The notes under the pieces were generated by a model. It searched no databases. It was not told the origin of the DNA and worked only from the letters and a program-made list of their open reading frames with translations. Of a DNA stretch of 64,000 nt, positions 557 through 43,319 are shown piece by piece (the stretch's first letter is position 1; the number at the start of each line of letters is the position of its first letter). This stretch comes from an uncultured Planctomycetota bacterium (GTDB lineage: Bacteria > Planctomycetota > JAJSAM01 > JAKLKS01). The stretch covers positions 5,905 to 69,904 of the forward strand of contig CAYJMF010000001.1 in NCBI GenBank assembly GCA_964370855.1, given 5' to 3'. The position numbers and the translations under genes are program-made.

Positions 557-979
557 ATGACGAACCGGACACCGAAGTCGCGGGAGGCGAGGATGCGGGT
601 CGTGGAGGTCCTCAAGCTCGAGGCCGGCATGGTGGAGTTCATCCGCACCCCCAGCCGGGACCAGCGGCTGCGGCTCCTCGCCCTTTGGAGGCTTCAGGCC
701 GGCCTGCCCGCGTACGACCCGGCCCCCCGCCGCCCCGCCGGAAAGGGCACGCCCATCGACGTGTCCTTCCTCGTCCGGGAACAGGCCCGCGTGGAGGCGA
801 GGCGGAAGGCCCGCCGGAGGACCCTCAACGCCCTCGGTCTCCACGAGGACGCCCAGGGCCGCACCGTCTGCGTCCTCTGCGGCGAGGCGGTCTCCACGGC
901 GTTCACCGGCCTCCGGGGTGCCTCGCCCTGGGCCGAGGGGCTGTGGCACCGGACCCTGTGCGCCGCGAGGGCGACGTAG
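557..979 (+). CDS. hypothetical Cys/His-containing protein
   Basis: ATG at 557 preceded by AAGGAGG 7 nt upstream (the track starts 3 nt earlier at a GTG). Contains CVLCGE...HRTLC, a possible zinc-binding pair. 23-nt gap after the previous ORF suggests an operon. Confidence 0.5.
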   Translation: MTNRTPKSREARMRVVEVLKLEAGMVEFIRTPSRDQRLRLLALWRLQAGLPAYDPAPRRPAGKGTPIDVSFLVREQARVEARRKARRRTLNALGLHEDAQGRTVCVLCGEAVSTAFTGLRGASPWAEGLWHRTLCAARAT

Positions 980-1057
980 GACCGCCGATGACCGACGCCC
1001 CGCCCCCTCCTACCCGGCGCCCTCCTCACGGTCCCGGAAGCCCTCCGCCTCCTGCCC

Positions 1058-1315
1058 GTGGGGCGGGCCACCATGTACCGGCTCCTGGACCAGGGGACCG
1101 TCCCCTCCGTCCGAGTCGCCTCCCTGGGGTCCCGACGGGGCCGGATCCTCGTCGTCCGCGCTGGCCTGGAGTCCTTTGTTGCCGGCCTCACCCCCGCTCC
1201 CGAACCTCATCCCCTCCCCCGTCCCGAGTCCCGGAGGCGGCCCTCGCGCCGCGTGGACGTGGACGCCCTCCGGGCCCGGATCATCGGGATCACCTCCGCC
1301 CGGGAGGCCTCCTGA
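1058..1315 (+). CDS. xis: excisionase / HTH_17-family DNA-binding protein (Xis-like)
   Basis: 85 aa; N-terminus MYRLLDQGTVPSVRV...RILVVRAGLESFV is a typical winged-helix excisionase/MerR-like HTH. Its TGA stop overlaps the integrase ATG (TGATG at 1313-1317), consistent with translational coupling. Confidence 0.6.
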   Translation: MGRATMYRLLDQGTVPSVRVASLGSRRGRILVVRAGLESFVAGLTPAPEPHPLPRPESRRRPSRRVDVDALRARIIGITSAREAS

Positions 1316-2811
1316 TGGGGCAGGAATTCCTCCAGAACTCCCTTGAGGCGCCCCCCGCCACGAGCCCTCATGTGGCCATGATCAACCACCAGACGACCGA
1401 CGCCCCCGGGCCCGAGTCCCGGGACCGACGCTCTGCGTCCTCTCCCCAGGAGGAGGGGGGCCGCCGCCGGCGCCGCCTCTTCGGCCGGATCTACCGCAAG
1501 CCGACGTCCCAGTCGACTTGGTACATCCGGTACCCCGACCCCGAGAGGCAGCGGGCGCCCAACGGTCGGGTCCGAGAGATCGTCCGGTCCGTCCCCACCC
1601 GCCGGGCCGCCGAGGCCCTCCTGGCCGAGGTCCGGCGGGCCCTCTACTCCGGCGCCTACGAATCCCCGCTTCCCGCACTGCCGGCGCCGAGCGCCCCCGG
1701 GACGGCCCCCGCTGTTCCCGGGGACCGCCCACGCACCTTCACCGTCCTCGACGCCCTCGACGAGTTCATCGACACCCGCGAGGCCGCTGGCCGGTCCCCG
1801 ACGACCATCGTCAGCTACCGCGGCCACCGGGATGCCGTCGCGCAGAGTCCCCTGGGGGTCCTCCCCGCCGCCGAGGTCACCCCCGCCGACATCGAGGCCT
1901 TCCGGGCATGGCGGCGGGAGCGGTCCTGGAGGGCCGTGCGCCGCCCCGGGCGCGTGGACGATCCCGATGTGAAGGTGATCCCCCGGGCGGCGTCGGACTC
2001 GACCGTGAACCGGGCCCTCACCGTCCTCGGGGCCGCCTTCAACAGGCTGGTGAAGCTCGGTCGCCTCCGCGAGAACCCCGTCGCCCGGGTCTCCAAGGCC
2101 CGCGAGCCCCGCCACGCCCGGGCCGCCCTCTCCAAGGACGAGGCCCGACGCCTCATCGATGCCGCGGGCCCCCACCTGCGCCCCCTCATCGTGGCCGGCC
2201 TCTACACCGGGGCCCGCCGCGGGGAACTTCTCCGTCTCACCTGGGCCGACGTGAACTTCGAGTCCGGGACCATCGCTCTCTTCCGCCCCAAGGTCGGGAA
2301 CTCCTCCCGGCTCCCTCTCCACCCCCGCCTCGCCGAGGAACTCCTCGAGGTCCGGGAGGCGCGGGCGCGGAAGCGGGGCCGCCCCGTCCCCGACGACGAG
2401 CACATCTTCCTCGCGAGGTCCGGCCGCCCCTGGGTGACCATCCAGCGCGCCTTCCTGAAGGCGCTGAGGACCGCCGGCCTCGAGGGGCGCAAGGGCCTCT
2501 GCTACCACTCGCTACGCCACACCTTCGCCGTCCACTTCCTCGAGGGCGGCGCGGCGGTCCCGGACCTCCAGGGCCTCCTCGGCCACGCGGACCTGACGAC
2601 CACCCAAGTCTACGCCCGCATGGTGGACAGCCGGACCCGAGAGAGCCTCCTGGCGCTGGACTACGGCGGCCCGCGTAGGCCCCCCCGGCCCCCCCGATCA
2701 AGATGTGGATCCCCCCCGCCCCCGCTACAATGCCGCCGTCGCGCCGGGGCACCGCCACAGCGCCCCGTCGCGGCGGACGCGAGCATGCGTGGACACCTCT
2801 TGCGAACCTGA
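1315..2811 (+). CDS. int: tyrosine recombinase / phage-type integrase
   Basis: C-terminal catalytic domain with LYTGARRGELLRL (Arg I), HSLRHTFAV (His-x-x-Arg) and LLGHADLTTTQVYARMV (catalytic Tyr). N-terminal SAM-like core-binding region (TFTVLDALDEFID...). The track ORF 685-2811 is an upstream read-through extension. An alternative start lies at ~1375. Confidence 0.8.
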   Translation: MGQEFLQNSLEAPPATSPHVAMINHQTTDAPGPESRDRRSASSPQEEGGRRRRRLFGRIYRKPTSQSTWYIRYPDPERQRAPNGRVREIVRSVPTRRAAEALLAEVRRALYSGAYESPLPALPAPSAPGTAPAVPGDRPRTFTVLDALDEFIDTREAAGRSPTTIVSYRGHRDAVAQSPLGVLPAAEVTPADIEAFRAWRRERSWRAVRRPGRVDDPDVKVIPRAASDSTVNRALTVLGAAFNRLVKLGRLRENPVARVSKAREPRHARAALSKDEARRLIDAAGPHLRPLIVAGLYTGARRGELLRLTWADVNFESGTIALFRPKVGNSSRLPLHPRLAEELLEVREARARKRGRPVPDDEHIFLARSGRPWVTIQRAFLKALRTAGLEGRKGLCYHSLRHTFAVHFLEGGAAVPDLQGLLGHADLTTTQVYARMVDSRTRESLLALDYGGPRRPPRPPRSRCGSPPPPLQCRRRAGAPPQRPVAADASMRGHLLRT

Positions 2812-2881: not shown

Positions 2882-2957
2882 GCGGGCGTAGCTCAGTGGT
2901 AGAGCATCGGCTTCCCAAGCCGAATGTCGAGGGTTCGATCCCCTTCGCCCGCTCCAA
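2882..2957 (+). tRNA. tRNA-Gly (anticodon CCC)
   Basis: GCGGGCG acceptor stem pairing with CGCCCGC (7/7). D-arm GCTC-AGTGGTA-GAGC. Anticodon arm TCGGC-TTCCCAA-GCCGA gives anticodon CCC. T-arm GAGGG-TTCGATC-CCCTT, discriminator T, encoded CCA. Folded by eye, not by software. Confidence 0.8.
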
Positions 2958-3057
2958 ATCCCCCCGAGGCTAACAGCCTCATAAGCATGGGGTTACGACG
3001 CTTTCCCTTCCTCCGAACGGTCGGTTTGGCACAACCCGTTTGTGCCCCGAAATGCCC

Positions 3058-3100
3058 CACTTTGCCGTTTCACGGCAAAGTGGACGGCAAAGTGGCGGCG
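3058..3100. repeat. perfect 11-bp inverted repeat (CCACTTTGCCG-tttca-CGGCAAAGTGG) followed by a direct repeat of CGGCAAAGTGG
   Basis: Seen directly. Lies between the tRNA 3' end and the stop of the minus-strand integrase. Candidate integrase arm-type site, att-region element or terminator. Confidence 0.4.
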
Positions 3101-3148
3101 GACCCCGGGATAGGGGGTGCGGCGGTGCTGGAAGGCCCTCGGCGAGGG

Positions 3149-4394
3149 TCAGCTCGCCGGGGCGGTCTCCACGGTCCCGGCCCCGGCCCGCCGGCCCCGC
3201 CGGCGGCGCGGAACGCCCGCCGCGGGAAGCAGGGAGGGGAGACCCTCGACGGCGCCCTTCACGTCGAAGAGGGCGAGGTCGGTGTAGGCCTTCATCGTCA
3301 GCTCCATGGAGGAGTGGCGGGCGAGGGCCTGCACGACGCGGGGATGGAGGCCGAGCGCCGCGAGCGAGGTGATGAAGGTCCCGCGGAGGGCGTGGAAGTC
3401 CACGGAGCGCCCCCCCTCGTCCACCCTCGCGATGCCCGCCGCCTCGAGGTCGCTGTGGAAGGTGCGGATCTGCGGGAAGCGGGCCGACGGGAAAACGGGA
3501 TCCTGCGGCTCTCCCTTCACCGACTTCCAGCGGTACTCCTTGAGCCACCCCGCGAGTTCCTTCCGGAGAGGGACGGACTGGTCCCTCTTCGACTTGGCCA
3601 CCGCCGCCGGAATCAAGACGGTCCCCTTCTCCAGGTCGAGATCCTTCCAGGAGAGGGCCAGCATCTCCCCCTTGCGGAGCCCCGTCCCCGCGGCGAAGGC
3701 GTAGATGAGCGCGCGGGTCTCGCCGAGGAGAAGCAGCCGCGCCTCCTCGGGAGGGGTGACGCCCCTGTGCTTCCTCTCCGCCCGGGCCTGCTCCAGCGGG
3801 CGGCGGCGAGCGGCATCGAGGAGCCGGCGTAGCTCCCCGTCGGTGAGGGCGCGCCGCACGAGGCGGCGATCGGTCTCCTCGTTGAGGGAGCGGATGTTGA
3901 TGAAGGGGTCGTAGGCGAGACGGCGGTTCCGGACGAGCCATCGGCTGAACTGGAGGAGGGCAGCGCGCATGCGGTTCACGGTCCGCGCACTCAGGCCCCG
4001 GTCGGAGCGGCCCTTGAGCCACGCGGAGGCGCGGGGGCCGTCGAGCTCCTGGAGGCCGGTGAGCCCGTTCTCCTCGACGAAGAGCTGGAGGGTCCGCTCG
4101 CGATCCTCCAGGTGGACGGGGGAGAGGCGGCGGGAGGCCAGTTCGGTGAGGAAGTCCTGGACATGGTCGCCGAGGTGGCGTTCGAGCTGGTCGTCGAAGG
4201 GAGTGACGAGGCCGGCGGCCCGGTGCTCTTCCTTCTTCGAGAGGGCGAGGGCCTTGGAGTAGGCGGCCTGCCGGTCCCGGGTTTCGAGGGAACGGCGGAT
4301 CCGCTTCCCGTCCACGGTGAGGTCCACCCAGTAGACCCGGGCCTCCCGGAGCTTCCCCTTCCCCGTGCGGAATCGCGGCTTGTACACGCGCATG
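3149..4394 (-). CDS. int: tyrosine integrase (phage integrase family), transcribed toward the tRNA
   Basis: Start MRVYKPRFRTGKGKLREARVYWVDLTVDGKRIRRSL is the AP2-like N-terminal domain typical of P4/CP4-57-type integrases. The catalytic region has GTGLRKGEMLALSWKDL (Arg), HALRGTF (H-x-x-R) and MKAYTDL (Tyr). The track ORF extends to 4717 as an upstream extension; ATG at 4394 chosen. Confidence 0.85.
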
Positions 4395-4715
4395 GCGGCC
4401 TCCCGACCCGGGGCGCGCCCTGCCGGCGCCCCCGCTCCGAGGAGCCTAACGTGGAGGGGGCCCATCGACTGCTTCTTGGTTGCCGGGGCGGTCCGGGAGT
4501 CCTCCACCGGGGCGGGGCAGGTGCGGGGCCCCCGGGGTAGAGTCCCGGGGTCACCACCGGGAGGTCCCTTGGCTGGTCCCAGATCCGTCGAACCGGGCTT
4601 CGGGCGCCGGATGCCGCGTCTCCCGGCGGTGGAGACGCTCGCCCGGATCCCCCCGCTGGCCATCCTGGTGTTCCGGGCCACGGCGCCGGTGGCGGTGCCC
4701 CGGAAGGCGACCACC

Positions 4716-5375
4716 ATGATGCCGGAGAAGGAGTGGGAGGCGAATCGGAGGATCGAGGCGGCACGGCCGGGGGCCCACGCGGCGTCGATTCGGGCTCTGG
4801 CGCGTTGGTTCCGGCACCGGGAGATCCCCGTCTACCAGGTGACGGCCCGGGCGGCCATGGTCGAGGGGGTGCTCCGGGGGCCCTGGAGGGATACCGACCC
4901 GGGGCTCGTGGGGCGACTGCTCGAGTACCCGGCGAAGCCGCGGGCGTGGGTCGAACTGCTCCCCTACCTCGAACTGTTGCGGCTCCTTCGGGTCGAAGGA
5001 CATCCGAAGGCAGTACTGGCCGCGGCCCGCGAGGCGGTCGTCGGCGCCGAGAAGTCAGGGGATCCCTTGGGGATGCTGCACGGCGTGCGGGAGGTTGCGG
5101 CGATGCTGCAGGAAGATATCGCGATCCTGCACTGGGCGTCGGTCGATGAAGCCCGCGCCGCGGCGGCTCCTTCCGCGAAGGGTGGCACCGACGGGGGGGA
5201 CCCCAAGGACCCTCTGCGAACGATTCCAGAAGCGGCGAAGAGGCTGACGCTGGGGGTCCGAACGGTATGGAGGGCCATCAGCGTCGGACAGTACCGGGTC
5301 GTCCGCCTCTCGAAGAGGGTGGTCCGCATGAAGGAGTCGGAGATCCAGAGGATTCTCCGCAATAGAGAACCGTAG
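4716..5375 (+). CDS. DNA-binding protein with C-terminal HTH_17 (excisionase/MerR-like) domain
   Basis: C-terminus IPEAAKRLTLGVRTVWRAISVGQYRVVRLSKRVVRMKESEIQRIL is an HTH_17-type helix-turn-helix. Divergent from the integrase. Start uncertain (ATG 4716 or 4611; track ORF from 4365). Confidence 0.5.
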   Translation: MMPEKEWEANRRIEAARPGAHAASIRALARWFRHREIPVYQVTARAAMVEGVLRGPWRDTDPGLVGRLLEYPAKPRAWVELLPYLELLRLLRVEGHPKAVLAAAREAVVGAEKSGDPLGMLHGVREVAAMLQEDIAILHWASVDEARAAAAPSAKGGTDGGDPKDPLRTIPEAAKRLTLGVRTVWRAISVGQYRVVRLSKRVVRMKESEIQRILRNREP

Positions 5376-6054
5376 GCTCCCATGGCAGGCCCAGCCTGGC
5401 ATTTGGGGGAGGCTGGGCGATTAGCACCAGTGGTGCGCCATTTCGTCGAAGATATTGGGTTCGGACACGGCGGTGAGGGAAGCGTCGAAGGACCGTTGTC
5501 CACCAAAGCGAGGCGAGTCCAACTATCAGGACGCTCCCGCTACACCTGAGGCGGCTCGATTGGCTCCCTCGACCACTTGCGAGCTGACGATGCATGAGGG
5601 GGATTCGGCACAGCATTTCCCCACTTCCCGATCGGACAGCTTTCTGATGCGACCCGGATCTTGGCCGCTGCCAGACACCCACACTCCAAGCAGACGACAC
5701 CCAACCCTAGCCGACTACAAGGTCCGCTCCGGCCTGGCTCCCCAAAGCAATGTTGGGATCGAACGGACTCCACTTCAGGACTAGCGCGATCGAAGGAAAG
5801 CGCCGCCCTTGACAAGCCGCGGACACCATCCCCGAGACTCCTAGCAAGGGCCCCAACCGTCGGGCGAACTCCTCTACAGCACCTCAAGAACCCCTCCCCA
5901 TCGCGGTTACCAACCCCACTTCCCCACTTCCTCCGCCACTAGTGCCTCGCAAGGTAGTTCTGGTACACCCCCGCCCGAGGGAATCCTGTACCGGAACTTT
6001 CCGCGTGTCGCCCTCGCACTACCTCGCTCCAGCCACGTCCCATGCGCGCGCACG

Positions 6055-6354
6055 CTATTCACACACCAGCGTGACAAACAGCACTGCGAACGAGAACCCC
6101 GCCACCGTCGCCACAACCACCCGAAGCGGCCGCGCAACAATAGAGAGGCGGGCTAGCACGATGCAGGCCACCATACACACGAGAGTAGCGGTCCACACAA
6201 TGCCGGCCACCATGGGCACACCCATGCGATATTCGGTGCTCTGGTTCATGAACGCCGCAAACCACGTTAGGACGCTTGCCCCTGCCGCAACAACAGCCAT
6301 CACCACCGCTCCAAGATTTGCCGCCAGCACCAGTACTCTCTTACCTCGCGGCAT
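6055..6354 (-). CDS. small membrane protein (about 3 TM helices); candidate immunity protein
   Basis: 99 aa, strongly hydrophobic (LVLAANLGAVVMAVVAAGASVLTWFAAF ... VAGIVWTATLVCMVACIVLARL ... VVVATVAGFSFAVLFVTLV). Its start overlaps the stop of the upstream lipase-domain giant protein by 14 nt. A gene immediately downstream of a toxin domain is the classic immunity position. Confidence 0.6.
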   Translation of the reverse strand: MPRGKRVLVLAANLGAVVMAVVAAGASVLTWFAAFMNQSTEYRMGVPMVAGIVWTATLVCMVACIVLARLSIVARPLRVVVATVAGFSFAVLFVTLVCE

Positions 6355-9300
6355 TGCGGAATGCCTCGCCCAGATCCGTTCCTACGCCACCGTCCGTGCC
6401 AACCCATCCAGAGTCTTCGTGCTTTGCATCATAGGTCTTTCCACCGCCCAAATCCCGCGTACTCGGAGCCAGGATCACACTATCAGCTCTAAACACAAGC
6501 TGCCCCAACTTGCTGTACTTTGACATGTATCCGACAAATGCATTCTGAATATTTCCCGGCAAACCGTAGGGCCTCGAATCAATGTTACTCGAGAAGGCCG
6601 GGGGGAACGACACATGAGTATGACCGCGCATTTGCGCCATGTCAGAGTGGTCCATCAAGCCGCTATCCACCGGATCAATAAGCCCGATAAATCGCACCTT
6701 GAGGCCGGCTCCCAAGATCTTGTTGCCCTTGCACCTACAGCCGGCCTTGCTAATGAACCCCGCAATATACATAGCCATGATTGCTCCGCGCGACCACCCC
6801 ATGATATCGATTTTTATTCTATCCTTATCACACCCCGCCTCCAAGTAGGCGCATACCTTCGAGCAGTACCATGCCATAGCCTTGTGCCACACGGCCATGA
6901 ATTCATTCGTATCCTTCAGCAGCCCCTTCCCCAGGGTGTCTGGAACGGTTGCGCTAACTTCAAAGGTATCGTAAAATGTCTCGCCGGTTGCTCCCTTGCC
7001 CTCGGCCGTCTTCTTGTAGGAGTCGCGCTGTCCCTGAATTGTGGTGTTCGTATATGGAGCATTCCCACGATTCCTGCCCCCCTCAAAGAAGAAGCCGAGC
7101 CACAGGTCCTTCTTGCAGGGGTCCTTTACCCCCTCCTTAGAGTCTCTGGTGGCACTTCGAACACCCTCAGTCGTCGCTTGGTCGGGAGGCTGCTTCGGCT
7201 TCTCCGGGACCTTCGGCTCCTCGGAGACAGGCGCTTCCTCCACCTTCTTCTGCGGTGGAACAGGCTTATCGTCCTGCGCCGGTACGGGAGGGCCCTGCTG
7301 CGCGACAGCCGTAACGGAATCTGCTGCACCAGGGAGCCCGATACCAGCAACGGAATCTCCCGTGAGTTTTCTCTGACCATCCATTAGAGGTGTGTCACCG
7401 CCGGATGGAGGAGGTCCCATGGATCCGGGTTGGCCGATATCAGGCGGCGATTCCCCCGCCCCCCCCTTTCCCTTCTCGGCCGGATCACTCGGCTCCCATT
7501 GGCAGGTGGCATTGTTGCACACAGTAGTTGGGGGACAGGGTGGGTCCATATCCTTGCACTTTGGTGGAGGTCCACAATTCGGCCACGTCCCGAGCGGTAC
7601 CACAGCGTCGTCCTGGGGGGCCTTCTTCTTTCTCTCTTCCTCCTTTCGCTTCTTCCACTCCTCCTCGGTCTCGTCGGCTCTCTTCTTCTTGTCTTCTCCC
7701 TCTTGTTCCTCCTCGTCCGCCTTTCTGTCATAGTCGTCCGCGGCCTTATCGGCCCTTGCTGCCTTTTCTTGGTAGAATGCCACAGCAGCCCAGCGACCCT
7801 CCTTCGCCGCTTGGTCCGCCTTCTTCCTGTAGTAGTCGCCCTGCTTCCTTGCCTCGCCAGCCCTTTTCCGGTTCTTCTCAGCCTCAGCGCGGTGTGCCAT
7901 TGCCTCGCGGAACATTGGATCCCGCTTTGCCCGTTCCTCGTCCGCCTTCTTCTGAAGCCTATCAAGTTCCTTCTTGTTGGCAAGTGCCTTCAACTCCAGT
8001 TCCTTCTTTTTCGCTGTATTGGCCTGTTCCTTTGCCTTATTCGACTTCTCCGTCTCCTCCTTGGCCTTCTTCGAATAGTAATCCTGCGCTGCCTTCGTAC
8101 TGGCTTTCTCAGCTTTCGCCGCGAACTCCTTAGCGCGAGCCTCATGCTTGTCCGCGGCGCGGTTGAATTTTTGAGCAGTATCACCGTGCTTCACTCCCTC
8201 CCTGAATAGGGGATCCTCCGCGGCCCTCTCTAAATCTGCGCGTCGCTGGCGCTTGGCTGCCGCCAAGGCCTCGGCAGCCTGTGTGGCACCTTCCGCCCCT
8301 CCTGCGCCTCCCTCCTTCTCAGTGATTTCCTTATATTCCTTCTCATAGTCATCAATCCTCTTCTGGGCACGTTCCGCAGCCAGAGTATCTCCACGCTTTT
8401 CAGCGTCCGCCTTCTCTTGCTTCGCGCGTTCGACGGCCAGCCTAGCCTGTCTCTCTCTGTCGGATTCAGCCAGGAGGTCCGCCGCCTCCTGCTGTAGTCG
8501 ATCAGCTCGCTCCTTTGCTCGTCTGTAGGCTTCCGCATCTCCGCGCTTCGCGGCTCTCTCCGCATCACGGGCCGCACGATCCGCCACGATAGCAGCTTCT
8601 TTGGCCCGGTCTGACGCAGCCCGCGCCCGGGCAACGACGGCGGGGTCGGCATCGTTCTCAGCATCGCGGAGCCGACTTTCCCGCTCGGCAGCGGCACTCC
8701 GAAGGCCCTGTGCTTGGTAGCGAACCTCACGAGCCTTGCGCAGCCCCTCAGGATCTCTGTACTGTTCGTCGTGTTCTCGCTCGCGCTCCCTCTGCTGCGC
8801 CCTTCGTTGAGCCGCCTGCTCTATGAGCCGCAGGATGTCTGAGGAAGGGGCTGTCGACTGCTGCGATGCCTCGAACCCTGACTTCAAGGCGTCGAGGGTC
8901 CAATAATCCAAGTCTGCCTTTGCCTGTGCGTACTCTTCCTTGGCCCTCTCCAGCTTCGTGGCCAGCTCCACTTCCTTCTTCAATGCACCCTTGAACACCG
9001 CGCCGTAGAAGGCCACGCTCTGTTCAATGCGAGCCAACCACGCAGTGTCTTCTGATTGCTCGTCCTCTCGTTTGACCTCACCCAGGATCACTCTCTTGCG
9101 AATTGAGTCTTCTTCTTCCTGAATTGCGCGGTTGTATTGCTCAGTCAAATCCTTGACCACTTCCTCAGCCTTGACCATCCGCTCGAACGCTTCATCCGCA
9201 TTGTTCTCGGCTTCCCCAGCACGCTGTACTGCGCCGACTCCTCCACCACCAGGCCCTCTTGAAGCGACCCCGGCGATTCCTGCAAGGAGATTGGCTCCAT

Positions 9301-11002
9301 GGCTGGATAGACTCGCTCCGATGCCCGGGGAGAACGGGCTAGGCGTCAAGACCCCACCTGAGACCTGAAGTTGTTTCGGAAGCAGAGAGAGCGAGTTCCC
9401 AAGCGGTTCGATGTTCAATTCACCTCTGCCAGCTGCCAACCACGATGGCCGGCTTGGCATTCCAGGCTCCGAGCCCATCAGGCCCATTTTCGTTCCCGCC
9501 GGTTCGCCACCGAACGACACTTGGATGACTTCCCCTCCTGTGACGCGCTGCAGGACTCCCCCTCCTTCATCGGGCCTAGCATAAATCAAATCGTTGACTT
9601 GGCGGACTCCGTCGACATCCTCATCACCAACGACGCCGAAGTCATGCACGCCAGCGTCCTCTTGCCAGTCCACACTCCACGGCTCGCTGTGAGGTGAATG
9701 GAATTCGGTTAACCACTTTGCGCCCCTGTGTCCATCATCCAGGCTTGGTCCGGGTGTTGCGAGGACACCTCCGCCTGGACCAAGGTCAGAGCCTCCGAGG
9801 TCAAAGTCTCCTGAAGTCGGAGGAGCCAGAACCGGAGGAAACCAGGGTCTCTCGAACCTGCTCGGGTCCACTGCGGCTATTACCGAGTCCTGTGGAGAAA
9901 GATAGGGTTCTGCTCTGAACTCCCGGAGTGGGCTGGAGTGAACCGGTGTAATCGTCGAGAGGATTGGTACTGAGGGAGGCTGCGTACTCGAATCGGCTAC
10001 CCCAGCTCCCGTGGTTCCTCCCGGCGGCCTATGGCCCTCTTCCTCTCTCCTTCGGGGCGGAGGCTCATCCGGAAGCGAAGGCAGCGGTCCACCGGACATC
10101 TGCCCTGCAGGAGACGCAAGGGGCTGGCCGCCGGCCACTTCAGAATCTGGCTCCTCATCCGTACGACGCCCGGCGACTGTTACGCCTCCGGAACCAGTAC
10201 CCTTCATCCTCTCTGGTTCCTGGGCCTCCTTTGGCGCTGCCTTTGATGCCAGAGGCGCATGGGAATCACCGGGGAGTTCCACTTCCTTCCCAACCACGGA
10301 GTGTCCCCCAGCCACTCTCAGCCCTGCCACCGACTCCTGCGGTCGCCCTCCGCCCATTGATTGGCCGGAGATACCTTCACCTGCAGGGTCCGCTCCTCCG
10401 GGTCCAGGTGCCATTCGAAAGCCCTGCTCACCGTAGCCCCTCGTAAGTTGCCCAGAGAACATTGAACCTGGGAAAGCACAGGCACCCGTAGGATGGCCCG
10501 AGCATGTACCAGGAGAATTCGGAACTGTGAAGGTGAGCGCCCACAGGGGCGCCACCTCCGGAGGAGGCGACGCGCCCTCGGCAACCTGTCCTTTAGGAGG
10601 AGTGCCCAGGTCAGGAGTGACACGGTCCATCCCTGCCGGCTCTTGGGGGGGGGTGAAAGGCGCATGCGTAGGCAGGCAGTCGCACTTCGCCACACACTTC
10701 TGTCCGCCCCCTTTCCCCACGACATCCTGCTTCGGTACGTCGAATTGCGCGTCCTTGATAGGGAGCGGGGCGCCCTTGGGCGATAAGGCCCCGGCTCCAT
10801 CGCCACCCCCGGCTTGGGAATCTGCCGGAGCCTCGCTCTGGTTCCCCTTGGCGCTTGGTGGGCTAGCCTGCTGCGGTTTCTGGTCCTTCCTGGTGTCCGG
10901 AGGCGTGACTACAGGCTCAGGGCTCCCCTCGCGGGGGGGGGATTCGCATCCCTCGCACCCGCAGTCACCCGAACTTCCTCCGGCACCGGTATTGCAGGCC
11001 AT
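6341..11002 (-). CDS. giant (1553 aa) protein: Gly/Pro/Ser-rich N-terminus, ~600-aa Ala/Lys/Glu/Arg coiled-coil stalk, Cys-rich linker, C-terminal DUF2235 (Tle1-like alpha/beta-hydrolase, predicted lipase/phospholipase) domain
   Basis: AGAGGAG SD upstream of the ATG at 11002. C-terminal region has LWLGFFFEGGRNRGN, the nucleophile elbow IDIMGWSRGAIMAMYIAGFI (GxSRGA) and VRFIGLIDPVDS, which match the DUF2235 triad of signature motifs (FDGTxN / GFSRGA / FLGVWDTV). The central region is a heptad-like Ala/Lys/Glu/Arg repeat (AKEEYAQAKADLDY..., DRAKEAAIVADRAARDAERAAKRGDAEAYRRAKERADRLQ...). The lipase-domain DNA (about 6341-7400) is visibly lower GC (~52-55%) than the flanks. Confidence 0.8.
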   Translation of the reverse strand: MACNTGAGGSSGDCGCEGCESPPREGSPEPVVTPPDTRKDQKPQQASPPSAKGNQSEAPADSQAGGGDGAGALSPKGAPLPIKDAQFDVPKQDVVGKGGGQKCVAKCDCLPTHAPFTPPQEPAGMDRVTPDLGTPPKGQVAEGASPPPEVAPLWALTFTVPNSPGTCSGHPTGACAFPGSMFSGQLTRGYGEQGFRMAPGPGGADPAGEGISGQSMGGGRPQESVAGLRVAGGHSVVGKEVELPGDSHAPLASKAAPKEAQEPERMKGTGSGGVTVAGRRTDEEPDSEVAGGQPLASPAGQMSGGPLPSLPDEPPPRRREEEGHRPPGGTTGAGVADSSTQPPSVPILSTITPVHSSPLREFRAEPYLSPQDSVIAAVDPSRFERPWFPPVLAPPTSGDFDLGGSDLGPGGGVLATPGPSLDDGHRGAKWLTEFHSPHSEPWSVDWQEDAGVHDFGVVGDEDVDGVRQVNDLIYARPDEGGGVLQRVTGGEVIQVSFGGEPAGTKMGLMGSEPGMPSRPSWLAAGRGELNIEPLGNSLSLLPKQLQVSGGVLTPSPFSPGIGASLSSHGANLLAGIAGVASRGPGGGGVGAVQRAGEAENNADEAFERMVKAEEVVKDLTEQYNRAIQEEEDSIRKRVILGEVKREDEQSEDTAWLARIEQSVAFYGAVFKGALKKEVELATKLERAKEEYAQAKADLDYWTLDALKSGFEASQQSTAPSSDILRLIEQAAQRRAQQREREREHDEQYRDPEGLRKAREVRYQAQGLRSAAAERESRLRDAENDADPAVVARARAASDRAKEAAIVADRAARDAERAAKRGDAEAYRRAKERADRLQQEAADLLAESDRERQARLAVERAKQEKADAEKRGDTLAAERAQKRIDDYEKEYKEITEKEGGAGGAEGATQAAEALAAAKRQRRADLERAAEDPLFREGVKHGDTAQKFNRAADKHEARAKEFAAKAEKASTKAAQDYYSKKAKEETEKSNKAKEQANTAKKKELELKALANKKELDRLQKKADEERAKRDPMFREAMAHRAEAEKNRKRAGEARKQGDYYRKKADQAAKEGRWAAVAFYQEKAARADKAADDYDRKADEEEQEGEDKKKRADETEEEWKKRKEEERKKKAPQDDAVVPLGTWPNCGPPPKCKDMDPPCPPTTVCNNATCQWEPSDPAEKGKGGAGESPPDIGQPGSMGPPPSGGDTPLMDGQRKLTGDSVAGIGLPGAADSVTAVAQQGPPVPAQDDKPVPPQKKVEEAPVSEEPKVPEKPKQPPDQATTEGVRSATRDSKEGVKDPCKKDLWLGFFFEGGRNRGNAPYTNTTIQGQRDSYKKTAEGKGATGETFYDTFEVSATVPDTLGKGLLKDTNEFMAVWHKAMAWYCSKVCAYLEAGCDKDRIKIDIMGWSRGAIMAMYIAGFISKAGCRCKGNKILGAGLKVRFIGLIDPVDSGLMDHSDMAQMRGHTHVSFPPAFSSNIDSRPYGLPGNIQNAFVGYMSKYSKLGQLVFRADSVILAPSTRDLGGGKTYDAKHEDSGWVGTDGGVGTDLGEAFRNAAR

Positions 11003-11014
11003 CGCTCCTCTATG

Positions 11015-11374
11015 CTAGCTCAGCCGCTGCTCGAGGAACCCCACCGCCCACCCGGTCAGGACGGGATCAGACCCCGCGATCGTGATCTTGAGCCGGAACC
11101 AGCGCCTCGTCAGGGTCGCGGACATCTGGACCTCGGTGCTGGCCCCGACCGCGGTGGGACCGCCTCCCGTGCAGGTCGACCAGCTGTTCTGATCCGTCGA
11201 CTCCTGCGCGGTCACGCTCCAGGTCGCTCCCGCCGGGACGTCGGGTCCGCGCCAGAGGCTCAGGAGGGCAGTCTGGTACTCCGTCACGTCCATGGCGATC
11301 GTGTAGAAGTCCGTCGCCCCTGCGAACGTGGTGAACCGCGGCACCATCACGACCGGCACGAGCTCGCCCGCCAT
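11015..11374 (-). CDS. small beta-rich protein, paralog family member 1 (PRFT...WRGP...GGG...WFRLKITI...WAVGFLEQRL)
   Basis: 119 aa from ATG 11374 with AGGAGG SD. Shares conserved blocks with the ORFs at 11480, 12363, 12762, 13444 and 13740. Its stop is 13 nt upstream of the giant gene's start. Confidence 0.7.
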   Translation of the reverse strand: MAGELVPVVMVPRFTTFAGATDFYTIAMDVTEYQTALLSLWRGPDVPAGATWSVTAQESTDQNSWSTCTGGGPTAVGASTEVQMSATLTRRWFRLKITIAGSDPVLTGWAVGFLEQRLS

Positions 11375-11479
11375 CTCTTCCTCCTGGGCTCTTGGCCCTG
11401 TCCTGCATCTCACCAGAAACCGTCGTTACCAGGGCCGGCCTCGTTCAGCGCATGCCACGAGCCGTTACCCTACCATCTC

Positions 11480-11848
11480 CTAGACCAGTCGCTGCTCCAA
11501 GTACCCCGTTGCCCACACCGTCACCGCGGCATCCGAGCTTGTGCCCAACGGCAGGTCGATCTTCATCCGCAGCCACCGGCGCCTGAGGTTCTGAGCGATG
11601 ATAGTTGTCAGGTCCTCCCCCGGATCAACCGGGGACCCGAGATCCTGCCATGTTTCCGCATCGTGCGAGTGCTGAAGGACCACGCTGAAAGTCCCTCCAC
11701 CCTGTACGGGACCGCGCCACACTGTCAGGACACAACGGGAGTATCTGTCGACCTGGAGCGCTACCGTCACGAAAGAACTGTTCCCGAAGTACGATGTAAA
11801 GCGCGGAGCCATGACGAGTGGGACCTGAACACCCTTGGGCTGTGCCAC
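11480..11848 (-). CDS. small beta-rich protein, paralog family member 2
   Basis: 122 aa; GTG start with GGGAGG SD. Motifs LVMAPRFTSYFG, VWRGPVQGGGTFSV, RRWLRMKIDL, VWATGYLEQRLV align to paralog 1. Confidence 0.7.
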   Translation of the reverse strand: MAQPKGVQVPLVMAPRFTSYFGNSSFVTVALQVDRYSRCVLTVWRGPVQGGGTFSVVLQHSHDAETWQDLGSPVDPGEDLTTIIAQNLRRRWLRMKIDLPLGTSSDAAVTVWATGYLEQRLV

Positions 11849-11937
11849 TTCAACCTCCCGTTTGGTCTGCCGACCGGTCGCGGCTCTTCACTTCCGTTGG
11901 AACCCGGCGTCGCACGTCAAGCACTCTAGACATCGTC

Positions 11938-12300
11938 CTAGGTGAACTCGATAACAACGACCTGAACGGGAGCGACAAGACCTACGCCGTCGATTTCCCC
12001 CTCGTAGGTTACTCCCGCGGGGAAGGTGAACAGCCCTCCCGGAGGCACGAGGAGGTCCGTAACCAGGACGGGGCCGACACCCAGTCGGATATTCAGGGGA
12101 TTCACGGGGTCCAAGTTCTGGATCAAGACCTGGAACCTCCCTTGAAGCGGCGCAGCAATCGCCATGCTCGCTCCGACGAGGTAGTAGTTCGTCGTTACCC
12201 CGGAGATGGCACCGCGCACGGTGAGCTCGCCCTTCGTACCAACGAGCATCCCCGTCCCGAGTCCTTTCAGGCCGTCTTGGATCATATTGAATTCCGGCAT
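11938..12300 (-). CDS. small Gly-rich beta protein, not a member of the paralog family
   Basis: 120 aa; ATG with GGGAGG SD. Gly/Val-rich (GLKGLGTGMLVGTKGELTVRG...FTFPAGVTYEGEIDGVGLVAPVQVVVIEF). Embedded within the paralog array and co-oriented with it. Confidence 0.65.
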   Translation of the reverse strand: MPEFNMIQDGLKGLGTGMLVGTKGELTVRGAISGVTTNYYLVGASMAIAAPLQGRFQVLIQNLDPVNPLNIRLGVGPVLVTDLLVPPGGLFTFPAGVTYEGEIDGVGLVAPVQVVVIEFT

Positions 12301-12362
12301 CTCGCCTCCCTATGACCGCTTCTTCGTCGGAACTTCCAGCTCCGAACTCCCGTGGCCTGGTT

Positions 12363-12731
12363 CTAAGCCCCAGACCTCTTGTCGAAGTCGCCCACGGCCC
12401 AGCATGTGTACCCGGGATCAGGAGCCCCCCCGGTGATCGTGATCTTCAAGCGCAGCCACTCCGTCTCGAGCGCCGCGAACGCCTGTGCCACCTCCTGCTC
12501 ATCAGCAGGCGTGAAGGGAGTCCCTTCCGAGGTCCAAATCACCAGATCGGGAGATTTCTCGACCTGGACGGAAAACGTCGGAGTACCACCACCGATGGTC
12601 ATCCCCTTCCACACACTCATGTTTGCAGAGGAGTACTGCCGCACGTTCACGGGAGCAGTGGCGTACTCCATCGCTCCGGATAGGCTCGTGAACCTGGGCA
12701 GAAGCACGATCTTGTCCACATCGGCAGCCAT
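12363..12731 (-). CDS. small beta-rich protein, paralog family member 3
   Basis: 122 aa; AAGGAGG SD. IVLLPRFTSLSG, VWKGMTIGGGTPTFSV, EWLRLKITITGG, YTCWAVGDF. Confidence 0.7.
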   Translation of the reverse strand: MAADVDKIVLLPRFTSLSGAMEYATAPVNVRQYSSANMSVWKGMTIGGGTPTFSVQVEKSPDLVIWTSEGTPFTPADEQEVAQAFAALETEWLRLKITITGGAPDPGYTCWAVGDFDKRSGA

Positions 12732-12761
12732 CGTAAGACCTCCTTCATACTGACCTGTGCC

Positions 12762-13133
12762 CTACCGCAGAAGGCCCTCGGCCCAGCACGTTACGCGAGT
12801 GTTCGAACCGTAAATGACGATTCGCAATCTGAACCACCGAAGCCGGAACCCATAGCTGAAGAACCTGCCGTCCGTACCGGGGTCAATCCCGTATGCTGAC
12901 GTGCCCGCTCCCGTAATCCAGTCCTGGCCGTTTAGCGATTCCTCGATGTACATCGTGAATGTCGGAGTAGCCCCACCTCCGAGAGGCCCGCGTCGGAATT
13001 CGAATTCGGCCGACGCGTATTCTGAGATATCCAGTGGCTGGGTCGTGAAGACGAACGAACCGGGCGTCGTTCCCTTGCCGACAAGCGTCGTGAACCTCGG
13101 GAGCAGCGTCAGAGCCGACTTCGCATACCCCAT
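12762..13133 (-). CDS. small beta-rich protein, paralog family member 4
   Basis: ATG 13133 (MGYAKS...) with AGGAGGAG SD; the track ORF extends to 13169. LTLLPRFTTLVG, FRRGPLGGGATPTFTM, RWFRLRIVIYG, VTCWAEGLL. Confidence 0.7.
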   Translation of the reverse strand: MGYAKSALTLLPRFTTLVGKGTTPGSFVFTTQPLDISEYASAEFEFRRGPLGGGATPTFTMYIEESLNGQDWITGAGTSAYGIDPGTDGRFFSYGFRLRWFRLRIVIYGSNTRVTCWAEGLLR

Positions 13134-13443
13134 TCGCCTGCTCCTCCTATGGGCGACAAGTGTGAGCATTGACGCAAACGGTTGACGGATTCAAGACGAA
13201 GTCATTGCTGCCTTGCCTTTCGCGGCGACTCGAGTCCTCGCTGTCCAGACCGATGGTCTCCGCATATTCGGGCCTCCGCCTGGAATGGCCTTGGGCGTCG
13301 CCGAGCTGGGGCATGTCCAGAGGAGGCGCGGGGAACTCGGACCAGGACCGCCTTGCGGGAGCAGATGCGCGCGACAAGTCTCTGGTTCTGCCATCGACAG
13401 CTTGTGCCGGCATGGGTGTTATCCCTACGGGTCTCGAAGGCAC

Positions 13444-13743
13444 CTACCTGTCCCCTTCTCTGAACCAGCGCACTCTCATGCGCGCATCTCCGCCGAATTG
13501 CCGCAGCCGCAACCGTCCCCAAGAAGTCCCCTGCGGTCGGCAGGGAACCGATTGCCGCTGGCCAGGGGACACGACTCCGGAGAGTATCCCGGTCCAGAAC
13601 GACTTGTCCTCGCTACCCTCCAGGACGAAATCGACTGCCCCGGTGTACTGTGGGACGGATTCGACCGCTTCGATGTAGACGACGCCTCCCGCCCTGCAGT
13701 CGAACGGCTCGGTGACGAACTCGTTCGCTTGTTCCACGTTCAC
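13444..13743 (-). CDS. divergent paralog family member 5 (lacks the N-terminal PRFT block)
   Basis: 99 aa; GTG start with GGGGAGGA SD. Its start overlaps the upstream gene's stop (GTGA). VDFVLEGSEDKSFWT and WGRLRLRQFGG...RVRWFREG align with the TFSV...W and WLRLKITITGG...CWAVG blocks of members 1-4. Confidence 0.55.
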   Translation of the reverse strand: MNVEQANEFVTEPFDCRAGGVVYIEAVESVPQYTGAVDFVLEGSEDKSFWTGILSGVVSPGQRQSVPCRPQGTSWGRLRLRQFGGDARMRVRWFREGDR

Positions 13744-14150
13744 TCCTCCCCACCATCCTTGGTGCGCTCCCCTGTCCTGCGTCGGCGCACGGAGGACTGC
13801 CTTCGACTGGCCCTCCCCATCACGGACGGACGGTGGGGCCCGGACCGCGCGGACACGCGCTTCTGGCTCATTGTCGGGAGCTCGTCGGAACCTCGTTCGG
13901 TGTCGTCCGTCTGGATGATCCGGATTGTGAGCTTGCGCCCTATGGGGATGGAGATGGCGCGGAAGGCCGAGACATCGATGAACGCCTGTACTTCATTGCT
14001 TCCGACGATCGTCGAGTATCGCGGGTAGAACTCGAGGGGTACGACCTTCGCATGGGAGGGCTCGGGGGAACGCTTGCGGAAGTCACGCCTCCCTCTCGCC
14101 TTGGCGGCACGCCTCTCCTTGTTTGACTCCTGCCGTGGTCGCGCGCTCAT
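13740..14150 (-). CDS. divergent paralog family member 6 with basic N- and C-terminal tails
   Basis: ATG 14150 (MSARPRQ...) with GGGAGG SD 5 nt upstream; the track ORF extends to 14216. VVPLEFYPRYSTIVG resembles the LLPRFTxxxG block. Highly basic termini (RRAAKARGRRDFRKR; RRQSSVRRRRTGERTK). First gene of the operon. Confidence 0.55.
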   Translation of the reverse strand: MSARPRQESNKERRAAKARGRRDFRKRSPEPSHAKVVPLEFYPRYSTIVGSNEVQAFIDVSAFRAISIPIGRKLTIRIIQTDDTERGSDELPTMSQKRVSARSGPHRPSVMGRASRRQSSVRRRRTGERTKDGGEE

Positions 14151-14291
14151 TCGACCTCCCTTGCGTCCATTGTCGTTCCTGAGTTCCTGTGTAGGCCATG
14201 GCCCCGCTGTCGTCAACTCACCTTTGGAGCGGGGCCTTCACCGTTGGAGCGGACCCCGCTCGAGAGGTTCCACCCGCCCGCATCAATGGCC

Positions 14292-33605: not shown

Positions 33606-33671
33606 CGGCACCCCACCGTTCAGCGCCCGTCTGCTCCGATTCTCTCCTTCAGCAGCCGGAGGAACTCCCTT

Positions 33672-33733
33672 CATTGCAGCACCCACCATCATCGACGTGA
33701 TGGTTGCTCACGGGAAGGACAATCGTGATTCCC
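33672..33733 (-). promoter_or_regulatory. conserved ~62-bp cis-element, copy 2 (upstream of the TerB gene)
   Basis: cattgcagcacccaccatcatcgacgtgatggttgctcacgggaaggacaatcgtgattccc; see copy 1. Confidence 0.5.
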
Positions 33734-38588: not shown

Positions 38589-38803
38589 TCCGGAGGCTGC
38601 ACCTCTCCAGCGGTTCATCCGAGGACACCAGTCAGGAGATGGGACTGCCGGCCATGGCGAAAACCTCGCGGCCCCCTCTCGTGACGGCTCGGAGGTTGGC
38701 CCGATGGGAGCCCGACTCGGAGATGGGGCCGTCTAGAGGTATGCTCTTTGGAGTAGACGGTCCGTCGTATCGATGCCCCTGTTCGTATACGACTGAGGAA
38801 CTG

Positions 38804-39793: not shown

Positions 39794-39811
39794 TGCCCAG
39801 GAGGGGAGCGC

Positions 39812-42331: not shown

Positions 42332-42508
42332 GAGAACCTGGTAGCGATTCCGGTTCCTCACGTTTCCCTGATCCGTCTGTTGATCCGCTAGGGGGCCGAG
42401 CCTGCCATCCGGGACCTGCCCCCCCATTTGGCGAGACCGAGCAAGGCAGGAGTGACGCCGGAGGGGCAGAACGAGCCGGTGGGGATGCGGGTGGGGTAGG
42501 GGAATCGA

Positions 42509-43144: not shown

Positions 43145-43319
43145 GTCCTCGCCCGGAGTGGCGACCACCGAGATTACAGACTCTCTGGGAACGAGGACTA
43201 GCCAGGCCTCCTGCGACGGACGAGCACAGAGAAGCAGCCATCCCCCATTGAGGCGACTGGCCTCGGTGTGGCATGCTCAACGAACAGCGCACTCTCCCGT
43301 GCGCAACCGAGGGAATTCC

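Follow-up and report, generated by a model that had tools for sequence, protein, structure and literature searches.

A candidate polymorphic toxin-immunity system of Planctomycetota with an array of single-jelly-roll proteins and a cysteine-clustered giant carrier

Polymorphic toxin systems, which were defined by Zhang, Aravind and co-workers in 2012 (PMC3482391) and include CdiA/CdiI, Rhs, LXG and MafB, keep an N-terminal scaffold, swap the C-terminal toxin and carry an immunity gene directly downstream. The same logic is found in a ten-gene operon on the minus strand (5540-14149) of a 64,000-nucleotide stretch of DNA from an uncultured Planctomycetota bacterium (contig CAYJMF010000001.1, positions 5,905 to 69,904), hereafter the window. 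Seven small genes are followed by the gene for a protein of 1553 amino acids (the giant), a gene for a 99-amino-acid protein with three transmembrane (TM) segments and a gene for a 115-amino-acid cysteine-rich protein. We consider it probable that the operon as a whole encodes a polymorphic toxin with its immunity protein on a carrier module that has not been described before, with a scaffold of jelly-roll proteins and display of the toxin outside the cytoplasm. The operon is assigned to the polymorphic toxin class because related loci reveal variable C-terminal tips, an established pair of a toxin and its cognate immunity protein, an orphan cassette (in locus L003) and a recurrent pairing of toxin and TM protein. 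The tips come from the known repertoire, namely Tle1-like, Endonuclea_NS_2, DddA-like with Imm1, and GIY-YIG. Unlike the described systems, however, the operon shows no signal peptide and no known domain for trafficking or of the repeat type, be it FHA/TPS, RHS, LXG/WXG100, PAAR, MuF, DUF4157 or another, and a scaffold of cysteine clusters, Gly/Pro-rich and helical regions with an obligatory upstream jelly-roll array is found in no described class; the terms "jelly-roll" and "cysteine-rich" are absent from the 2012 survey (PMC3482391). The toxin and immunity logic is known; new are the carrier, which has no known trafficking or repeat domain, and the accessory module, an obligatory array of differentiated single-jelly-roll proteins.

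LXG toxins are exported by the type VII secretion system (T7SS), and small genes upstream of them encode Lap or targeting-factor proteins, which bind to the conserved N-terminal part of the toxin and thereby make it export-competent. The present operon likewise has several small genes directly upstream of the toxin gene; however, the LXG partners are alpha-helical and WXG100-like, whereas the small proteins described here are jelly rolls. Pfam scans for secretion and phage domains took in about 30 window open reading frames (ORFs), which are most, but not all, of the longer ones, and neither LXG, WXG100 nor an EssC/FtsK-type ATPase was found among them. The scans also returned no domains of the T6SS (type VI secretion system), the T7SS or phage tails, as the initial annotation of the window had stated. 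The nearest working analogue might be seen in the Ena3A/L-BclA/ExsL cluster of Bacillus, in which three genes suffice for a fibre of jelly-roll subunits that are linked by disulfides and for its long tip fibril, and no secretion machine is involved (PMC11362473). Like the Ena loci (Ena1A/B/C, Ena3A), the operon combines tandem genes for jelly-roll proteins of about 115 amino acids with an adjacent gene for a protein with a long stalk and a globular head, it has no dedicated secretion machine, and cysteines may act as covalent staples. In contrast to Ena, it is the giant that bears the cysteine clusters, its head is a toxin accompanied by an immunity gene, and the hosts are non-sporulating. None of the small proteins matched DUF3992 at E <= 1, and no Ena chain appeared in a PDB profile search at E <= 10.

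All nine minus-strand genes of the initial annotation were recovered at their positions, and a tenth conserved gene (5540-5887), which had been missed, completes the operon. Some of the starts had to be moved. The first small gene, X0, had been started at TTG 14216, but its start is most likely ATG 14149, and X0 is called as a protein of 136 amino acids in other assemblies; the starts of P1 and P5 are at 11374 and 13133, respectively. Spacing is tight or overlapping, as had been described, with overlaps of 14 nucleotides between the giant and TM genes and of 4 nucleotides between X0 and X1 and with gaps of 12-105 nucleotides elsewhere, except for a gap of 310 nucleotides between X1 and P5 (13134-13443). 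In this gap, the sole non-tight spacing, no ORF, gene or degenerate paralogue was recognisable; it could be the site of a regulatory element or an internal promoter. A scan for promoters and terminators yielded no sites above chance, and neither a degenerate paralogue nor an orphan toxin was recognised in the stretch 4720-5540. The canonical Shine-Dalgarno sequence attributed to each gene is present as a Shine-Dalgarno-like motif ahead of every start (GGGAGG, AAGGAGG, AGGAGG), although that of the TM gene is weak (GGGCGAGG). The block of low GC content seen initially was confirmed: GC is 0.53-0.66 across 5.0-15.5 kb of the window and 0.70-0.76 in both flanks.

P1, which is encoded directly upstream of the giant, was used to find related loci. 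The P1 family comprises 248 detected members, which are unnamed or annotated as hypothetical and carry no Pfam domain; those with a named source derive from metagenome-assembled genomes of Planctomycetota, and P1 orthologues are 47-64% identical. No cultured organism appeared among the matches. A scan of genomes, one per species, with the P1-orthologue alignment revealed ten loci, nine in Planctomycetota and one in Gemmatimonadota, and 31 further loci were found in metagenomes. No P1-family relative was found in 2.9 million IMG/VR viral contigs, and a tblastn search with P1 and P4 against 50,697 phage genomes revealed no relatives. The initial annotation had asked whether the small paralogues co-occur with a giant protein bearing variable C-terminal domains. 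They do: in 23 of the 26 related loci whose sequence extends 1.5 kb or more past the last paralogue, the array is followed by a long ORF on the same strand, which encodes 400 to more than 1900 amino acids or runs off the contig end, and 22 of these 23 giants have a cysteine cluster within the first 360 residues. The flanking genes vary from locus to locus and include RecA, AsmA, HEAT-repeat proteins, glycosyltransferases and integrases, with terminases at one locus only; no secretion-system or phage-tail domain was recorded among the annotated genes of L001 and L013-L016. The operon is therefore regarded here as a self-contained module, which is found almost only in Planctomycetota. The module is absent from Pfam, NCBIfam and PADLOC, in line with the earlier statement that carrier and array match no recognised family, PHROGs gives weak matches to small proteins only, and no description of it was found in the literature searched.

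The small proteins belong to two families. P1, P2, P4 and P5 are mutually 34-44% identical and match the family profile with E-values of 1e-22 to 1e-57. X0 and X1 are divergent: against a broadened family profile, X0 scores 18.1 bits over positions 4-43, i.e., the N-terminal third, and X1 scores 16.0 bits over positions 36-110; L005 has a like pattern for X0 and a counterpart of X1. X0 consists of a basic N-terminal arm, the N-terminal third of the jelly-roll family with the motif FYPRYS and a basic tail, and X1 is without the first jelly-roll strand. It was considered that X0 and X1 are a single split jelly-roll gene; this was rejected, as both are separate in L005 too and cover overlapping parts of the fold. 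Family B is distinct from the P/X family and has homologues in the arrays of five other loci (14 homologues in all). The six paralogues that had been counted are thus four strong members and two divergent ones at 16-18 bits, and the seventh small gene represents a separate family. No small protein has an above-cut-off Pfam match or belongs to an NCBIfam or PADLOC family; weak matches are those of P2 to Pfam F5_F8_type_C (E 0.002), of P4 to the "major tail protein" family phrog_9522, within its C-terminal region (E 4.5e-5), and a further one to phrog_5707.

The small proteins had been predicted to be beta-rich, and structure models agree: the AlphaFold2 model of P1 is an eight-strand jelly roll with a predicted local distance difference test (pLDDT) score of 92.9, and both modelled families are single jelly rolls. 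Structural neighbours of this fold are oligomeric or fibre-forming, such as the XepA pentamer, Ena fibres and viral penton and spike proteins. Foldseek identified 59 matches at E <= 0.001 among the BFVD viral models, mostly small uncharacterised phage proteins, with best TM-scores of 0.65-0.73. The best match in a PDB sequence search, the BPP-1 cementing protein, was not significant (E 0.52); the resemblance to viral and PDB proteins is one of fold. XepA of PBSX and YomS of SPbeta have 5-10% identity to the small proteins without a sequence-level match and are located in phage lysis cassettes, away from any giant toxin. The match to XepA and YomS adds fold, not mechanism. Long arrays keep the orthologous types in the order X0, X1, P5, P4, B, P2, P1, giant, and all short arrays keep P1; given this fixed order of types, the small genes appear to be old, differentiated subunits and not recent duplicates. 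In L005 (10503-13132) and L040 (689-1582), P1 is followed by a paralogue with a C-terminal extension of about 160 amino acids. The cysteine-cluster protein after the extended paralogue of L005 has only 528 amino acids and adjoins a transposase gene; this arrangement may be a decayed or rearranged form of the system.

The giant has the length of 1553 amino acids, the Gly/Pro-rich N-terminus and the motifs that were first reported for it, namely GFFFEGGRNRGN, GWSRGA and IGLIDPVDS. Residues 1-600 contain 17% Gly and 13% Pro. They are followed by a span (residues 605-1120) with 72% A/E/K/R/D/Q and 4.7% Gly plus Pro, for which a heptad coiled-coil stalk had been proposed. A charged helical span is indeed present, but the heptad periodicity is weak, and it is hence termed a charged helical stalk rather than a coiled coil. 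The scaffold shared with the other giants starts with an N-terminal cluster of the form M-A/S-C...C-x-C-x-x-C, followed by a CxCxCxC-type cluster, a Gly/Pro-rich region, a span rich in helix formers, a third cluster ending in CxC, a linker, often with glycine-zipper hydrophobic segments, and the variable C-terminus. The first cluster is also N-terminal in the giants of L002, L003, L005, L008, L010, L011, L012, L018, L020, L022 and L031, the second lies within the first ~320 amino acids of almost all giants, and the third, which typically ends in CxC, is found in every full-length giant except that of L010, which also leaves its contig. A helix-rich span precedes the third cluster in all giants. 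Cysteine is otherwise rare in the giants, with 4-21 residues per protein. BLASTP comparisons among the giants detected no similarity save a single pre-toxin segment that L003 and L012 have in common, and the homology of the giants thus rests on architecture, not on sequence.

Scans of the whole giant identified no Pfam, PHROGs, NCBIfam or PADLOC family, and its N-terminal 1290 amino acids contain no Pfam, NCBIfam or PADLOC domain at all, including any that would assign the giant to a known export route (Sec/type II secretion system, type V secretion system, T6SS, T7SS, PVC, MuF, TcdB/TcaC). Neither the window ORFs scanned nor the annotated flanks of related loci yielded any known export machinery. 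Gene calls on 26 further contigs of this organism start the giant at codon 444, giving a protein of 1110 amino acids; the segment in question is 9671-11002 of the window and 4660-6000 of L049/L050. A genuine short variant was rejected: over 10.7 kb the sequences show 100% DNA identity, and the difference lies solely in the start that was called, so that the short call is a gene-calling artefact in a low-complexity region. The long form is supported by the N-terminal motif, which is conserved across loci. Giants of this type are likely to be truncated in public annotations.

Tle1, a phospholipase effector of the T6SS, is an alpha/beta-hydrolase (PF09994/DUF2235; structures 4O5P, 6SJL and 9J3F), and the C-terminal tip of the window giant is assigned to the Tle1-like hydrolases as a compact and diverged member. 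The initial annotation had suggested a search of the tip against PF09994. The isolated domain matches this family with E 0.0014 and 18.5 bits over residues 108-138, i.e., 31 residues that cover the nucleophile elbow only; a search of the PDB with the single sequence gave chance matches only. With the direct match below the cut-off of 27 bits, the assignment to PF09994 rests on transitive and profile evidence. A word-indexed search found one homologue of the domain and an exhaustive HMMER search found 27; the alignment used here has 24 sequences, the window domain and 23 homologues. PF09994 is matched by 13 of the 24 aligned members (best E 1.4e-11), and the family profile matches the Tle1 structures 6sjl_D (5e-8), 9j3f_A (3.1e-7, 144 profile positions) and 4o5p_A (8e-4). 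Ser1404 (GWSRG) and Asp1443 (IDPVD) are invariant and His1528 is nearly invariant across the alignment, and the three residues are predicted to form the catalytic triad. The domain shares with Tle1 the GxSxG elbow and the conserved Asp and His; however, it is much shorter (~260 amino acids), has conserved cysteines specific to its family (C91, C95, C133 and C135) and is fused to a carrier that is not of the T6SS. No T6SS component (VgrG, Hcp or PAAR) was associated with it among the window ORFs scanned. Five of the 24 aligned members contain RHS repeats, and in those that were read through, the domain comes after the DPxGL that ends the Rhs core. The window giant itself has no RHS_repeat match, although the same toxin domain is located behind Rhs cores in other organisms. 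The Planctomycetes protein MCG3135804.1 of L016 (10001-12459; 716 amino acids) has an MPGCGCP N-terminus, the run CCCCCCCECPCEC and repeated cysteine-containing segments. It carries the same lipase domain (33% identity) and is followed by a three-TM ORF, while jelly-roll genes are absent upstream; possibly this protein is related to the giants but shorter and without an array.

The gene for the 99-amino-acid three-TM protein is located directly behind the lipase tip, and its product is a candidate immunity protein. The partner of the window lipase is an integral membrane protein, whereas the partner of Tle1 is a periplasmic protein of the Tli type. The closest homologue of the lipase, P0121, is 53-56% identical and found in L017, where a 109-amino-acid TM protein overlaps its stop. 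The two TM proteins are 33% identical, with a pairwise E-value of 8e-12 that was obtained without composition correction. The TM gene of L017 is followed by a gene for a 119-amino-acid protein (929-1288), which is 51% identical (E 3e-31) to the cysteine-rich protein encoded at 5540-5887 of the window; both share the motifs MxCC at the N-terminus, VCLxCGCL and CPxGKWG. Lipase, TM protein and cysteine-rich protein thereby recur as a cassette in L017. The window cysteine-rich protein has no Pfam, NCBIfam or PADLOC match; it could be a second immunity factor, a maturation factor or something else.

Other loci carry other tips. The giant of L018 ends in a DddA-like deaminase (PF14428, E 2.2e-18), and the next gene encodes an Imm1 protein (PF14430, E 1.6e-8). 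The tip of L003 is an Endonuclea_NS_2 nuclease (PF13930, E 2.3e-13); it is followed by a 105-amino-acid gene, an orphan cassette and a second copy of the 105-amino-acid gene. The orphan cassette (16008-17663) encodes 274 amino acids, which repeat the pre-toxin region and contain a diverged nuclease of the Endonuclea_NS_2 type. Pfam identifies the tip of L014 as GIY-YIG/T5orf172-type (E 3.6e-5), and a DUF6572 protein is encoded after the giant of L012. AHH-like, JAB-like, glycine-zipper and PD-(D/E)xK-like tips were recognised by eye only and have no significant Pfam match. The polymorphic-toxin layout that had been proposed for the window thus finds its counterparts in the relatives, in the DddA-like/Imm1 pair, the orphan cassette and the recurrent lipase/TM pair. 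In L001 (19851-20360), 3.5 kb past the giant, a SUKH/SMI1 immunity gene accompanies a Toxin-deaminase gene that stands alone.

Taken together, a mechanism can be proposed in which the scaffold of the giant presents an exchangeable C-terminal toxin. In the window, this toxin would be a Tle1-like phospholipase with a Ser-Asp-His triad, which attacks the membrane of a competitor, and the three-TM protein would shield the producer's own membrane; the cysteine-rich protein travels with the lipase toxin cassette. The small proteins would be structural or adaptor subunits, not toxins or immunity proteins, and may form a hetero-oligomeric scaffold that assembles with the giant's N-terminal part. Conservation of P1 is strong, whereas the giants have diverged so far that their sequences are no longer recognisably alike, and P1 must therefore bind something constant; nothing but the cysteine clusters and the general layout stays constant among the giants. 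The jelly-roll complex might hold, export or display the giant, so that the toxin is presented outside the cytoplasm. The cysteine clusters that bracket the stalk could be inter-chain or giant-to-jelly-roll staples, made by disulfides or metal, similar to the disulfide knots that end other fibrous proteins, and such stapling would be in keeping with a function outside the cytoplasm.

Several observations weigh against a toxin-immunity system displayed outside the cytoplasm. Inspection of the sequences revealed no recognisable signal peptide or trafficking domain in the giant or the small proteins; export is assumed, and binding of the jelly rolls to the giant is what we infer. No long ORF was detected in three of the 26 loci. 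The lipase domain stays below the Pfam gathering threshold of PF09994 (18.5 versus 27 bits), the similarity between the TM proteins of the window and L017 is one of hydrophobic proteins scored without composition correction, and the three-TM ORF behind the lipase homologue of L016 is not homologous to the window TM protein. Furthermore, P0123, a distant lipase carrier with a cysteine-rich N-terminus, has no upstream jelly-roll genes and is followed by a non-homologous three-TM ORF. The operon is also located among defence-type genes in the window, which would suit an intracellular conflict role as well. In a system of the abortive-infection type, the jelly rolls would sense an invader, for instance by its phage capsid parts, the giant would free its toxin and the TM protein would restrain it. 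The neighbouring BrxC/D-like ATPase, TerB-N protein, DEAD helicase, DUF4041-T5orf172 protein and DUF4011 helicase-nuclease, the lack of visible signal peptides and a fold that is common to capsid-associated proteins speak for such a system; nevertheless, it is unlikely, as there is no PADLOC family match, the other loci examined lie outside defence islands and the tips and partners are of the interbacterial type (DddA-like with Imm1, Endonuclea_NS_2, the Rhs-shared lipase and the orphan cassette). The clustered cysteines around the stalk would also fit better to an oxidising extracytoplasmic setting.

A surface fibre or adhesin, in which the jelly rolls form the fibre, the giant is the tip fibril with an enzymatic or binding head and toxicity is secondary or absent, would overlap with the toxin-immunity reading on assembly and differ from it in purpose alone. 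The precedent is again Ena, whose fibres need three genes, have a long tip fibril that docks in the ring lumen and are cross-linked by disulfides (PMC11362473). A pure adhesin would have no need of nuclease, deaminase and lipase heads with cognate immunity genes, and the small proteins have neither a DUF3992 match nor the cysteine-bearing N-terminal connector that defines Ena subunits, which makes this alternative doubtful. Less can be said for a prophage or phage-derived structural module at the tRNA-Gly, with the giant as a tape-measure-like protein or fibre and the jelly rolls as head-decoration, cement or tail-accessory proteins. The weak PHROG matches of the small proteins (phrog_9522 "major tail protein" for P4, phrog_5707), the non-significant BPP-1 cementing protein as best PDB sequence match, XepA and YomS as prophage proteins among the top fold matches, the 59 BFVD matches, the tRNA-Gly and integrases that adjoin the block and two terminase genes about 7 kb upstream in L001 all point in its direction. 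However, none of the window ORFs scanned matched a family of capsid, portal, terminase, tube, baseplate or tape-measure proteins, ordinary chromosomal genes flank L013-L016, the IMG/VR and phage-genome searches found no relative, and tape-measure proteins do not carry swappable tips, Imm1-type immunity genes or orphan cassettes. A tape-measure protein inside a complete prophage was the observation that the initial annotation had named beforehand as speaking against its own reading; what was found is no complete prophage, no tape-measure or tail match and no relative in the viral collections. A phage origin is therefore already largely refuted and scarcely credible.

To our knowledge, no characterised interbacterial weapon or dedicated toxin-delivery route exists in Planctomycetota. 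For the probable toxin-immunity system, it can be speculated, tentatively, that the module assembles by itself into a novel kind of apparatus for toxin delivery, in which single-jelly-roll subunits form a hetero-oligomeric ring or fibre whose core is P1, the giant is stapled to it via its N-terminal cysteine clusters, comparable to the docking of a tip fibril in an Ena ring, the long stalk holds the toxin at its end and contact-dependent killing is achieved with no secretion machine; if true, this would be a new, Planctomycetota-specific delivery route for polymorphic toxins. As the carrier has no known trafficking domain, either very large proteins would be exported by an unrecognised signal, or the jelly rolls would be a delivery scaffold of a new kind. 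The module is recurrent, compact and portable, it bears much of the familiar toxin repertoire, and its short gene set allows the study of the cellular use of single-jelly-roll proteins, the fold behind many viral capsids. For annotation, the compact Tle1-like lipase with its three-TM partner and conserved cysteine-rich third gene provides a new toxin/immunity handle, and related loci can be recognised by the P1 family and by the cysteine pattern of the giants (MAC..CxCxxC near the N-terminus, then a CxCxCxC-type cluster). The features of the operon and its setting are given in Table 1.

Table 1. Coordinates of the operon genes, of segments of the giant and of adjacent features (window positions; E-values of P2, P4 and P5 are those against the family profile)
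Feature	Position	Strand	Remarks
X0, first small gene, 136 aa	13740-14149	-	ATG 14149 with upstream GGGAGG; longest ORF reaches 14216
X1, divergent jelly-roll paralogue, 99 aa	13444-13743	-	Start overlaps X0 stop by 4 nt
P5, single-jelly-roll paralogue, 123 aa	12762-13133	-	E 1.3e-22; orthologues in L007 and L010 occupy this array position
P4, single-jelly-roll paralogue, 122 aa	12363-12731	-	E 1.1e-26; orthologues in L006, L007, L010, L014 and L015
Family B, cupin/jelly-roll fold, 120 aa	11938-12300	-	Fixed place between P4 and P2
P2, single-jelly-roll paralogue, 122 aa	11480-11848	-	E 6.4e-31; orthologues in L005, L007, L010, L014 and L015
P1, core and most conserved single-jelly-roll protein, 119 aa	11015-11374	-	Stop 12 nt ahead of giant; in every related locus
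Giant, scaffold and exchangeable C-terminal toxin, 1553 aa	6341-11002	-	ORF listing
Cysteine cluster 1, aa 3-19, MAC..CGCEGC	10946-10996	-	Extreme N-terminus of giant
Cysteine cluster 2, aa 103-109, CVAKCDC	10676-10696	-	CxCxCxC-type
Charged helical stalk, aa 605-1120	7643-9190	-	Composition
Cysteine cluster 3, aa 1143-1167	7502-7576	-	After stalk, ahead of toxin-proximal linker
Tle1-like (DUF2235-type) alpha/beta-hydrolase domain	6344-7135	-	Predicted triad Ser1404 (GWSRG), Asp1443 (IDPVD), His1528
Three-TM candidate immunity protein, 99 aa	6055-6354	-	Start overlaps giant stop by 14 nt
Cysteine-rich protein, 115 aa (MRCC.., VCLECGCL, CPIGKWG)	5540-5887	-	Last conserved gene, toxin-proximal cassette
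ORF with weak AraC-type helix-turn-helix, 308 aa	14292-15218	-	PF12833 E 0.029, below cut-off; in low-GC block, just upstream of array
tRNA-Gly(ccc)	2882-2956	+	Beside low-GC block
Tyrosine integrase	3149-4717	-	tRNA-Gly side of block
Second tyrosine integrase	685-2811	+	Other side of tRNA-Gly

The tRNA-Gly and the adjacent integrase (2882-4717) are likely to be the integration end of an operon-bearing island. That the whole unit was acquired recently, which had been suggested from the GC content, is plausible from GC, tRNA-Gly and integrases, but no attachment (att) repeat was found: a second copy of the tRNA-Gly 3' end is absent from the window. The 308-amino-acid ORF just upstream of the array is called as a gene in L049, and no gene of this type was seen upstream of the arrays in the other loci examined. 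Its product is a possible local regulator of the operon, of which its membership is uncertain. Next to it, an ORF of 1000 amino acids (15598-18600, minus strand) without a Pfam match lies at a GC content of 0.72-0.76 between two lower-GC blocks; in other assemblies, this region has an 894-amino-acid gene call that ends just upstream of the 308-amino-acid gene (L049).

Farther away from the operon, GC falls again to 0.62-0.67 at 19704-24025, which suggests more mobile or defence cargo; an 837-amino-acid protein with DUF4041 and T5orf172/MUG113 (GIY-YIG-type) domains (19704-22217) and then an IS1595-family transposase (22991-24025) are encoded there on the minus strand. The region 26421-33692 looks like a conflict or defence-type gene cluster. 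It consists of a row of minus-strand genes for a DEAD/DEAH helicase (26421-28976), a BrxC/BrxD-like ATPase (28642-31113; PF10923, E 1.6e-153) and a 1227-amino-acid protein with TerB_N, TerB and TerB_C domains (30009-33692); the listed ORFs overlap, and their starts are provisional. At 46041-51749 on the minus strand, a 1902-amino-acid protein combines DUF4011, an AAA_11/AAA_12 helicase, an MTES_1575 restriction-endonuclease-like domain and DUF3320, i.e., a helicase-nuclease of the type found in defence islands. Between these two regions, the plus strand (34002-45087) encodes two S8 subtilases (34002-38588 and 39812-42331) on either side of an AAA ATPase (38639-39793), and a radical SAM/SPASM protein is encoded at 44053-45087.

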